Virus record (IMG/VR): IMGVR_UViG_3300013099_000020
Direction: 5' to 3' (one strand)
Length of the DNA: 64,000 bases
DNA from: a virus
This document shows, one piece after another, positions 7,455 through 10,352 of the stretch; position 1 is the first letter of the stretch, and each line of letters begins with the position of its first letter. The notes beneath the pieces were generated by a model. It searched no databases. It saw nothing but the letters and a program-made list of their open reading frames with translations, and had not been told where the DNA came from. Made by a program: the position numbers and the translations under genes.

Positions 7455-7802
7455 ATGCGGCTGCTCTTGCAGGGGATTAGGGACATCGACAGGCAGCTCG
7501 GAGACTCATCCGTACAGCGTTCTGATGAGTGGCGACCGCGAGCCATCCGATCGAAAGTCTACAAGCAAACTGAGTACGACTTCCTCAAGGAGGAGGTTCA
7601 AGACCTTAGACGCCTACATGCTGCTCGGGAGGCAGACGTCTACGAAGAGAATGACCCCAGGCATCTGCTACTACGTCTGAGGGAAGAGATCGCCCGATCT
7701 AATCGAAACGAAGAGAACCAACTGAACCAAGTATGTGCCGTTGTAGATCGCTACTTCGAGCACGATGGAGGAGACCCCGATGGCAGCAGGAAACCTACCT
7801 GA
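7455..7802 (+). CDS. hypothetical protein
   Basis: ATG at 7455 directly after the upstream stop; the start could instead be 7389. Confidence 0.45.
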   Translation: MRLLLQGIRDIDRQLGDSSVQRSDEWRPRAIRSKVYKQTEYDFLKEEVQDLRRLHAAREADVYEENDPRHLLLRLREEIARSNRNEENQLNQVCAVVDRYFEHDGGDPDGSRKPT

Positions 7803-8052
7803 CTTCAACGTGTACCTGGGTGACAAGTACATCCGCGAGGGAAAGAACAAGAAGCGCTTCGTCAAAGTCGGCGCCGCGTGGTGGAGCCGCAATGGCAAAG
7901 GGTTGATGATCACTCTCAACCCAGGTACCACGATCGACACAGCTCTCCTGGAGAAGTTCACCTTCGGGATGTTCGAGAACGAAGACAAGAACCCCGACGC
8001 CCCCAAGACGGGCAGTTACCCGGAGGAAGGCAATGATGACATCCCCTTCTGA
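7780..8052 (+). CDS. hypothetical protein ending in SSB-tip-like tail ...EEGNDDIPF
   Basis: ATG at 7780 with GGAGGAG 7 nt upstream; C-terminal acidic DDIPF matches the SSB C-terminal tip consensus DDDIPF. Confidence 0.45.
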   Translation: MAAGNLPDFNVYLGDKYIREGKNKKRFVKVGAAWWSRNGKGLMITLNPGTTIDTALLEKFTFGMFENEDKNPDAPKTGSYPEEGNDDIPF

Positions 8053-8704
8053 GCTGTGGCTCTTCCTTCCGGCGCACCATGAGTATGCCGATAGCGACTG
8101 CATCGTGCGTGTTGTGACCGCGGAGACCATTCAGAGACTCCAGACCATGATGGATACCGCTCTGGGTCTTCATGTGGGTGTGTCCGACCTCGCCCACATC
8201 GCTCTCTACGATTGCTCCTGGCAGTGGGTCGACAGCTTCAATATGCTGGCGAACATCGAGACCAAAGATCTCGAAGGGATAGCTTCACGCAAGTCGATGT
8301 TCGTCAACAATGATGGGTCGAGCCTTGGTGCAATCACCGAGGGTGATGGGTTCCAAGAACCCTTCCTCACCCTACCCTTCATGGACATCCCAGAGGATAC
8401 CCAGCGCATGGGCGGTGAATACGCCTATGTCGACAGCAGGAATATCCATTGGGGAGGTAGGCCCAAGCATTCGGACTTCGAGATCATCTCTGGTGAGATC
8501 AACAGAGGGCACCTCAAAGAGATGGGGCAGCTCTTGGAGCAGAGTCCCAACGAGTGGGACTTTGACCCCAATGATGAGGGGCAGGTCCTTGAGTTCTGTA
8601 GCCGCGTCAGCGGCAGTCTCTCCGAAGAGGAGGAGCGTATGCTTCTCTGCCTGCTGAAGGACGATGCGAGCAGGACCCTGCTTAGCGACACACTCTACAA
8701 GTGA
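8033..8704 (+). CDS. hypothetical protein
   Basis: ORF overlapping the previous stop (ATGATGA); no motif. Confidence 0.5.
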   Translation: MMTSPSELWLFLPAHHEYADSDCIVRVVTAETIQRLQTMMDTALGLHVGVSDLAHIALYDCSWQWVDSFNMLANIETKDLEGIASRKSMFVNNDGSSLGAITEGDGFQEPFLTLPFMDIPEDTQRMGGEYAYVDSRNIHWGGRPKHSDFEIISGEINRGHLKEMGQLLEQSPNEWDFDPNDEGQVLEFCSRVSGSLSEEEERMLLCLLKDDASRTLLSDTLYK

Positions 8705-8710
8705 GGGCAC

Positions 8711-8880
8711 ATGACCATTGAGATCCTAATGCTCAAGACACGAGACGGAAAGCACAAGGCTCGTATCCGGTTCACCTCCCCTGAGGGTAAGCGGAAGACC
8801 TTCTACACCAGCGCGCAGACGGCGCGTTTCTCTGTCTTCGCTGAGATCGAAGGCAAACTTCAACTGGAGAACATCCGATG
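8711..8880 (+). CDS. hypothetical small protein (56 aa)
   Basis: Short ORF found by hand between neighbours; GTGAGGGCACATG RBS-like context. Confidence 0.3.
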
Positions 8881-9081
8881 ACCTGTGGAAAGATCGCCTT
8901 CGAGGCGTACAACGAAGACCGCGGAGGTGTGAACCACCTCGGCAACAAGACCCCCGAGTGGGAAGAACTGCCCAAGGAGGTTCAGCATGGCTGGGAAGTG
9001 GGGGCAAGTGCTGCGGCCACTTACGAGATCAACCGGCTCATCGAGAAGGGGAAGCTGGTTTTGGGGAAGGACGAGTCATGA
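8878..9081 (+). CDS. hypothetical protein
   Basis: ORF; ATGA overlap with the previous gene. Confidence 0.4.
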   Translation: MTCGKIAFEAYNEDRGGVNHLGNKTPEWEELPKEVQHGWEVGASAAATYEINRLIEKGKLVLGKDES

Positions 9082-9263
9082 ACAGCACATGCATAGGCCA
9101 GTACCTCATCCTTGAGGAGCCGAACGGCGAGGCCACCGCCTATCGAGATGGGGAGGCTTTGTTCCAGAAGGACTTCGGTTCCTACGAGGAGGCCAAGGAG
9201 TGGGCCACGGGTGAGGTCGAGCTGGAGAGTGCGGGGGCTCATGACAGACAAGCCGGAGCCTGA
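9078..9263 (+). CDS. hypothetical protein
   Basis: ATG at 9078 overlapping the previous stop; tail of the 8958..9263 ORF. Confidence 0.4.
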   Translation: MNSTCIGQYLILEEPNGEATAYRDGEALFQKDFGSYEEAKEWATGEVELESAGAHDRQAGA

Positions 9264-9585
9264 GGAGGGTATGCTCAAGTGTCCTCCAGGCAGAGTGTTC
9301 CTCGACGCCGACTACGCTGAGCTGGAGCTTCGGATCTATGCCTCCATGGCAGCTGCTCTGAAGATCCCCGAGGAGTACTTGAGGCCACCCAAGCAGGTGG
9401 ATGTGACTCTCACCAGGGAGAGCGCGGAGATAGACATCCGCCCCAGTGCATACGCCAAGTTCAAGGCGGTGTTCGACGAGACACGCCGCTTCCAGTCGCT
9501 GGCGTACATAGGGATCGACATCGGTATCGGGGAATCCTACTCGTCTCCGCAAGCTGATGACGAACCCTTCCCACCCGATCTCTGA
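9241..9585 (+). CDS. hypothetical protein ending ...SPQADDEPFPPDL
   Basis: ATG at 9241; C-terminal acidic DDEPFPPDL tail is shared with the next gene. Confidence 0.45.
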   Translation: MTDKPEPEEGMLKCPPGRVFLDADYAELELRIYASMAAALKIPEEYLRPPKQVDVTLTRESAEIDIRPSAYAKFKAVFDETRRFQSLAYIGIDIGIGESYSSPQADDEPFPPDL

Positions 9586-9596
9586 AAGGAGGCCCT

Positions 9597-10352
9597 ATGG
9601 CTGAAGACCCGAAGACATGGAGCCCCCAGCATCTGCTGGATGAGATGGGGGAGCTGGAGTTCCAGCGGCAGTACATGGGGCAGCCTGCTCCTCCGCTGAG
9701 GATCGGCGGGTACAGGATCAAGGTTGTCGAGCGCATCCACCCGCAGATCCGCTTCAAGCTGAAGGACGGGGAGATCCACTTCGACCATGAGGTGGATGCG
9801 GAGGGTGACATCGAGGCAGTCTTGATGATGAACGCCCTGACCTGGGAGTACATGGAGAAGCACATCTTCCGGTTGGAGGAAGGGGGATCCTTCTTTCGGC
9901 AGCGCTGGGGTAACATGCACCCCGAGCAGTTCCAGGCAGTGATGCACGGAGCTACCCGACGGGCTAGCCAGCACTTCTACGAGGCCGGGGCGCTCCGGGT
10001 GATCCTCGAAGATATGCGGAACGCGCTCCACAGGGAGTGTCTCTATGGGTTCCGCGACAGGGGTCTGGAGAAGGCTCACCGCATTGTGTGCGAGGCCAAC
10101 AACAGGATCGGCCATATCATCGAGCCCTCGATGTGGAATGCTCCCCTTCAGTTCCGCATCGAGCCTCAAGGTGAGGATGGTCTGTTGATCCTTCCTCTGC
10201 ACTGCAACACGCTCCCGCATGAGAACTTCATGAAGGAGTTTGGTCATGTGATCAAGGCATGGGAGTATGCCTGGAGAGGTGGGCGCCCCGAGTCCGAGCC
10301 CGACTCCTATGAGCTTCGCAGCGACGACGAACCATTCCCGCCAGACCCGTAA
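9597..10352 (+). CDS. hypothetical protein ending ...RSDDEPFPPDP
   Basis: ORF with AAGGAGG RBS; same C-terminal motif as the upstream gene. Confidence 0.55.
   Translation: MAEDPKTWSPQHLLDEMGELEFQRQYMGQPAPPLRIGGYRIKVVERIHPQIRFKLKDGEIHFDHEVDAEGDIEAVLMMNALTWEYMEKHIFRLEEGGSFFRQRWGNMHPEQFQAVMHGATRRASQHFYEAGALRVILEDMRNALHRECLYGFRDRGLEKAHRIVCEANNRIGHIIEPSMWNAPLQFRIEPQGEDGLLILPLHCNTLPHENFMKEFGHVIKAWEYAWRGGRPESEPDSYELRSDDEPFPPDP

Follow-up and report, generated by a model that had tools for sequence, protein, structure and literature searches.

A small phage protein family with an SSB-type C-terminal tip on a non-OB domain, and a related tail on two neighbouring gene products

Why should three neighbouring genes of one virus encode proteins with acidic tails that resemble the C-terminal tip of SSB, the bacterial single-stranded DNA-binding protein? 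This question is raised by a 64,000-nucleotide stretch of the virus record IMGVR_UViG_3300013099_000020 (the window), in which the products of three genes, here called P1, P2 and P3 (Table 1), end in NDDIPF, ADDEPFPPDL and SDDEPFPPDP, as translation of the three intervals confirms. In Bacteria, the SSB tip is the central docking peptide of genome maintenance and has been proposed as an antibiotic target. A preliminary description of the window suggested that the phage could employ such tails to hijack or sequester host proteins that interact with SSB, or to co-recruit factors of its own. This idea is plausible for P1, as its tip is conserved across a protein family, but weak for P2 and P3. The reading favoured here, with a probability of roughly 0.5, is that P1 would be an adaptor of the phage that displays an SSB tip of the host type on a scaffold that is not an SSB, and that P2 and P3 would carry a shared docking peptide. 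The weight lies mainly in the P1 family and less in the cluster of three tails.

The stop codons of all three genes are the same in independent gene calls made on the 75 kb parent metagenomic contig. The P1 start, ATG 7780, has a GGAGGAG ribosome-binding site 6 nucleotides upstream and agrees with the N-termini of the homologues, and the P2 start in the gene calls is a GTG at 9211, 30 nucleotides upstream of 9241. The pattern [DE][DE]xPF occurs six times among the 951 stop-to-stop open reading frames (ORFs) of at least 40 codons in the six frames of the 64 kb window; three of these six occurrences are the C-termini of P1, P2 and P3, all inside 2.6 kb. A pattern of this type was found in the last 12 residues of none of 5,520 ORFs from unrelated loci. 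Furthermore, the likeness reaches beyond what was first described, with SY-x(4-5)-DD-x-PF common to the three proteins.

P1 belongs to a protein family in which the tip is kept and the linker before it varies. An exhaustive HMMER search with P1 yielded nine relatives of 81-152 residues that are 32-48% identical to it. All eight single-domain relatives (81-105 residues) have an acidic ...PF tip at the C-terminus, and the ninth (P0014, 152 residues) is a tandem of two P1-type domains without an acidic tip. A profile search enlarges the family to 55 sequences, all of them from metagenome assemblies, known from contigs of uncultured phages only, and none with a name or a Pfam domain. The members consist of a basic, beta-rich domain of about 65 residues, followed by a linker that differs in length and sequence between members and is rich in proline and acidic residues, and then by the tip. 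The N-terminal domain has the conserved motifs PDF, KVGxAW and LNPGxVLDWR. C-terminal PF, or PF plus one residue, is found in 37 of the 55 members, and in a few there are one or two residues beyond the Phe. Retention of the tip while the domain diverges to 20-48% identity to that of P1 is as expected for a docking peptide under selection. When the family profile was compared with Escherichia coli SSB by hhalign, the consensus tip dDdiPF aligned to the last 11 residues of that protein, and the rest of E. coli SSB showed no similarity to the profile.

In P1 itself, the domain carries a net charge of +4 (family mean +1.8) and comprises beta strands at residues 9-15, 27-35 and 42-46, a helix at 54-59 and a further strand at 60-66. 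The region following it is acidic (-5 in P1, family mean -2.9), has a median length of 25 residues that varies between members, and contains 16% proline. In the AlphaFold2 model of P1, confidence is high across the domain and low across the tail. P1 has the features of an SSB C-terminal (SSB-Ct) motif, namely acidic residues, a penultimate Pro and a last residue Phe with a free carboxylate. Measured against the bacterial SSB family PF00436, it has the disordered linker and the acidic tip but not the OB-fold domain. No sequence match to P1 was found in Pfam, NCBIfam or the PDB, and comparison of the domain model with solved folds gave no match to an OB fold, gene V protein, a PC4-like protein or any other fold. 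With an SSB-like layout but no OB fold or Pfam match, P1 is thus built like an SSB, outside the SSB family.

A family with this tip on a small non-OB domain is unannotated in Pfam, NCBIfam and PHROGs, and no paper describing one was found in the literature. Its only link to a described cluster is a tentative one, suggested by weak full-length profile matches of five members (E 0.007-0.13) to phrog_18187, an unannotated profile of 94 positions; the match of P1 covers residues 20-90. Other searches added little: a word-based search with P1 recovered P1 alone, the DNA pattern for LNPG[TV]VLDWR gave one chance hit in GTDB genomes and nothing useful in IMG/VR, and GenBank phages searched with P1, P3, the protein P0010 or the P3 tail gave nothing useful. 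The idea that P1 is a DUF736 protein (PF05284) was rejected: none of the nine members reaches a Pfam E of 1, an approximate DUF736-like sequence scores only 10.7 bits against the family profile, and tblastn against plasmids found no match.

In large uncultured phages, genes of the P1 family sit in a region devoted to nucleotide metabolism. The homologues lie on phage contigs of 39-197 kb, several of which have further genes in common with the window, and their neighbours include ThyX, UDG, dCTP deaminase, RNase HII, an RNase T-like exonuclease, a dNMP kinase and DnaB. The window belongs to a large and highly divergent phage, with genes nearly all on the plus strand, a G+C content of about 0.59 and four tRNA genes, and most of its ORFs have no Pfam or PHROG match. 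Genes recognisable near the tails encode one HD-domain and one ParB-like protein, a small GIY-YIG nuclease, a peptidase resembling M10, an exonuclease resembling Rv2179c, and RNase HII. The scanned window ORFs and the precomputed Pfam hits for the rest of the 75 kb contig include no recognisable Pfam SSB, polymerase, helicase or primase, and tblastn with E. coli SSB found no match in the window.

Judged from sequence, P1 would be predicted to bind host proteins through its tip and a ligand of its own through its domain. The tip would enter the SSB-Ct pockets on genome-maintenance proteins of the host, candidates being the Pol III chi subunit, PriA, RecQ, ExoI, RecO, UDG and RNase HI. P1 would then either bring these proteins to the ligand of its N-terminal domain, for which phage DNA, possibly single-stranded, or a phage protein is a candidate, or compete with host SSB for them.

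The bodies of P2 and P3 are otherwise unrelated, as had been noted from the first: BLASTP and hhalign align the tails only, and the bodies score z < 1 against shuffled controls. By the same comparison, the idea that P2 is a shortened paralogue of P3, which an apparent colinearity of starts, a middle stretch and tails had suggested by eye, was rejected. P2 residues 10-46 are 41-52% identical to the motif A region of family A DNA polymerases (E 1.6e-8 in an exhaustive search, which returned only P2 itself and polymerase fragments). The score of P2 against Pfam PF00476 is 14.6 bits at a cut-off of 34.3 bits. P2 shows neither a convincing motif B nor a motif C, thumb or exonuclease domain, and other parts of a Pol A gene were not found in the window. 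P2 is an orphan protein with a motif A relic of about 35 residues and not a polymerase. The possibility that the region downstream is a frameshifted polymerase was dismissed, as tblastn with full-length Pol I gave only a single-frame stretch of 31 residues covering motif A.

P3 has no match in Pfam, PHROG, NCBIfam or the PDB. Its single informative homologue, 58% identical (P0003), lies on a 3.4 kb contig from another metagenome (L013), on which the gene order is as in the window: a 67-residue gene, a 61-residue gene, P3, GIY-YIG and peptidase. Scans of IMG/VR and of the Joint Genome Institute (JGI) metagenomes with P3 or the P3 alignment gave nothing useful, and the loci of the ParB-like neighbour are 21-25% identical and have no tails. 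The GIY-YIG protein is 90% identical to its L013 copy (1070..1327), compared with 55-58% for the flanking genes, and relative to L013 its start codon in the window is shifted upstream into the P3 tail codons. The idea that a mobile GIY-YIG cassette brought the P3 tail is unsupported; since the DNA differences from L013 are mostly synonymous, the gene looks strongly conserved and not recently transferred.

The shared tail of P2 and P3 bears its own trace of constraint. The octapeptide DDEPFPPD is encoded by gat gac gaa ccc ttc cca ccc gat in P2 and by gac gac gaa cca ttc ccg cca gac in P3, so that five of the eight codons differ, all synonymously. Of the 72 possible single-base changes to these codons, 14 are synonymous, which puts the probability that five random changes are all of this kind at about 3e-4. 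The shared tail does not, therefore, represent a recent duplicate of DNA, and its peptide seems to have been kept unchanged. The preliminary claim of selection on the tail itself thus holds inside this lineage but does not extend to L013. P2 and P3 both end in a second and longer peptide, [ED]SY-x(4-5)-DDEPFPPD[LP], whose core is like the SSB tip; either this lineage gained it or the sister lineage lost it. As a recently acquired shared docking peptide it would tie both proteins to one partner, which may be the same host pockets, used non-canonically, or the basic domain of P1 itself.

Several observations weigh against an adaptor with two tailed associates. About a third of the P1 family is without the tip, which means that the P1-type domain can function without it, and the profile with which the family was collected contained the tip, which may inflate the share of tip-bearing members. 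In addition, the tip was compared with that of E. coli SSB, from which the SSB tip of the phage host may differ. The remaining points concern P2 and P3. The expectation that their tails would recur in related phages was not borne out: in L013, the only relative found, P2 is absent and the P3 homologue ends ...SGYPPSEVRKGGG, without a DDEPFPPD-type tail, and the P3 tail-coding DNA of the window has no counterpart there. None of six other phage loci with a P1 homologue encodes a second tailed protein. A search for DDEPFPPD C-termini in three sequence collections likewise came back empty, the back-translated pattern giving one chance hit in IMG/VR, 43 hits but no convincing C-terminal tail in the JGI metagenomes and no match in GenBank phages. 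Missing from L013, from the other P1 loci and from the three collections, the P2 and P3 tails are private to this lineage. Furthermore, known SSB-Ct pockets contact the C-terminal Phe ionically, through its carboxylate (PMC5872125), whereas the Phe of P2 and P3 has four further residues after it. Given the few P1-family members with residues after the Phe, this is a weakness and not an exclusion. Finally, P2 may be a decaying gene fragment.

What else could account for P1? It is possible, if somewhat doubtful, that P1 is the phage's own single-stranded DNA (ssDNA)-binding protein, with a new small fold and a tip used as in host SSB, and that P2 and P3 play accessory roles. A basic domain, followed by a disordered linker and a tip of the DDDIPF type, is after all the layout of an SSB, a canonical SSB is not detectable in the contig, the gene sits in a DNA-metabolism region, the domain recurs in an ssDNA microvirus, and one family member weakly matches an SSB-annotated PHROG (E 0.0095). 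However, the tail by itself may account for that match, no more than about 60 residues of the domain are ordered, the tip is absent from a third of the family, and the structural comparison returned no known ssDNA-binding fold. Such a protein would be a special case of the adaptor and would not contradict it. Less probable still is a decoy that does not bind DNA and titrates host nucleases, helicases and restart proteins that interact with SSB, or SSB-dependent defence factors, drawing them from host SSB in order to protect or favour phage DNA. A conserved tip on a non-SSB scaffold, the very small size of the protein and a position suited to an early gene agree with this, but a decoy would not need a conserved, basic, folded domain of 65 residues, and tail-less family members exist.

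For P2 and P3, it is conceivable, though on balance doubtful, that the tails have no function of their own and arose incidentally when a local rearrangement brought in P2, as a fragment of polymerase origin, and altered the 3' end of P3, their likeness to the SSB tip being coincidental. The state of L013, with no P2 and a P3 tail that is different and unrelated in DNA, agrees with this, as do the nature of P2 (a motif A relic only, without homologues), the failure to find DDEPFPPD tails elsewhere and the non-terminal Phe. Against a by-product speak the eight identical residues with their exclusively synonymous differences, the extension of the likeness upstream to SY with a spacing that matches P1, and the high third-position G+C of P2 and P3 (0.72-0.79), which is typical of plus-strand genes of the window. 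It is improbable that all three tails are docking or targeting signals for a partner outside the SSB interactome, for example a sliding clamp, a polymerase or helicase of the phage, or a protease adaptor. The non-terminal Phe of P2 and P3 would fit another pocket better than an SSB-Ct pocket, and phages are known to place a common C-terminal peptide on replication proteins that are unrelated. However, clamp, polymerase and helicase genes are not recognisable in the contig, and the tip of the P1 family equals the SSB tip residue for residue and is unlike the clamp-binding consensus QL[SD]LF. A more ambitious version of the adaptor is just as far-fetched: an SSB-tip-derived peptide would have spread over P1, as an ancestral non-OB 'mini-SSB' carrier, and then over P2 and P3 as recent recruits, forming one phage-controlled hub with host replication and repair enzymes in a phage whose own replisome is not recognisable. 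In such a hub, the internal DDEPFPPD would engage SSB-Ct pockets in a new way, without a free terminal Phe, or would bind the basic domain of P1.

The features discussed here are collected in Table 1.

Table 1. Positions of the three tailed proteins, their parts and associated features. Positions are those of the window unless a contig is named.
Feature	Position	Strand	Description
P1	7780..8052	+	90 residues; C-terminus by translation ...GSYPEEGNDDIPF, then stop
P1 globular domain	7780..7977	+	Residues 1-66
P1 linker	7978..8031	+	Residues 67-84; acidic, proline-rich; from alignments and low pLDDT (AlphaFold2 per-residue confidence)
P1 tip NDDIPF	8032..8049	+	Phe is the true C-terminal residue; tip peptide SYPEEGNDDIPF
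P2	9241..9585	+	114 residues; orphan; C-terminus by translation ...ESYSSPQADDEPFPPDL, then stop
P2 residues 10-46	9268..9378	+	Homology to motif A of family A DNA polymerases; PGRVFLDADYAELELRIYA
P2 tail ESYSSPQADDEPFPPDL	9532..9582	+	Tail peptide SYSSPQADDEPFPPDL
P3	9597..10352	+	251 residues; C-terminus by translation ...DSYELRSDDEPFPPDP, then stop
P3 tail DSYELRSDDEPFPPDP	10302..10349	+	Tail peptide SYELRSDDEPFPPDP
Gene upstream of P1	7389..7802	+	About 135 residues; overlaps the P1 start
Gene downstream of P1	8033..8704	+	223 residues; no family match; start overlaps the P1 tip codons by 20 nucleotides
Small GIY-YIG nuclease	10309..10620	+	Pfam GIY-YIG E 5.5e-19; start overlaps the P3 tail codons in another frame
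Small protein with internal DDEPFPPD	L018 1184..1612	-	Unrelated to the phage proteins
Small protein with internal DDEPFPPD	L025 5410..5637	-	Unrelated to the phage proteins
Small protein with internal DDEPFPPD	L060 4719..5102	+	Unrelated to the phage proteins
L013 lineage			ENA ERZ23498674

Both neighbours of P1 overlap it. The P1 tip codons at 8033..8052 double as the start of the next gene (ATG 8033) and read ATGATGACATCCCCTTCTGA, so that the tip sequence is constrained in two frames. The gene upstream of P1 has a homologue at L015 10968..11396, 0.7 kb downstream of the P1 homologue on that contig (32% identity over 132 residues, E 3e-13), and its product could be a functional partner of P1. 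Two distantly related contigs of phages have ThyX directly upstream of the P1 homologue (L015 8850..9845 and L063 8906..9847).

The microvirus copy of the P1-type domain is an unannotated ORF of 68 residues in Microviridae sp. MH572472 (L067 1498..1704, about 2743..2949 of the record). It is a tail-less P1-like domain (tblastn E 5e-3; 27.5 bits against the family profile) and sits between the scaffolding and replication-initiator genes of this ssDNA phage. The octapeptide DDEPFPPD was also seen 20 residues before the C-terminus (...ALGxxDxDDEPFPPDLGMRPIP...) in the small, mutually similar metagenome proteins listed in Table 1.

Elsewhere in the window, 1448..4063 (+) encodes a protein of 871 residues with a Major Vault Protein shoulder domain (E 3e-22), a Vault_3 repeat and weak similarity to SPFH/Band 7; this vault-like protein, which is unusual in a phage, is also found on the parent contig and on contig L002. 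A PAS-domain histidine kinase, a sigma-70-like protein, a patatin-like phospholipase and a dNMP kinase are encoded at 33330..34439 (+), 54288..55097 (+), 60696..61568 (+) and 41831..42631 (-), respectively, and a response regulator and a Cpn10-like protein are among 43 scanned ORFs. Three of the tRNA genes form a cluster at 832..1072 (-), with Leu-CAA, Tyr-GTA and Leu-TAG. The fourth, at 12171..12247 (-), is a tRNA-Ile with the uncommon anticodon AAT and is overlapped by an ORF at 11805..12290 (-); as the product of this ORF is 58% identical to that of an L015 ORF, the real gene probably starts downstream of the tRNA. Finally, the stretch 24697..24918 (+) weakly resembles the N-terminal 5'-3' exonuclease (FEN) region of a bacterial Pol I (E 0.006); it lies inside or just upstream of the ORF 24757..25737 and has no Pfam match.

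If the adaptor reading is true, the P1 family would mean that to phages the SSB tip is a portable module with which the SSB interactome of the host can be reached. Natural tip variants for binding studies could then be drawn from the family, and unannotated genes of large, very divergent uncultured phages that seemingly have no replisome of their own would receive a name and a function open to testing. If functional, the tails of P2 and P3 would represent a docking peptide in the act of spreading to new proteins, on the evidence of one lineage at present.

Among known systems, phage T7 offers a parallel to the group of three. Its gp2.5 and gp4 have acidic C-terminal tails ending in Phe, and clamp-binding tails are known from phage T4. 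As in P1-P3, unrelated proteins of one phage have similar acidic aromatic tails, which in T7 serve a common docking partner. However, gp2.5 and gp4 have no homology to P1-P3, the T7 partner is its own polymerase, of which none is recognisable here, and the T7 tails end in Phe, in contrast to those of P2 and P3. Compared with the family A DNA polymerases (PF00476), P2 retains motif A and its flanks only, in a protein of 114 residues. For P1, the closest likeness is to bacterial and phage SSBs, and phage SSBs with host-like tips are already known. The domain of P1, at about 65 residues, is smaller than the roughly 110 residues in SSB and has no sequence or structural similarity to the OB fold. 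Even so, P1 has the same three-part layout as an SSB with its OB fold, disordered linker and DDDIPF: the linker is likewise variable, acidic and proline-rich, and the consensus tip of the P1 family is identical to the E. coli SSB hexapeptide.

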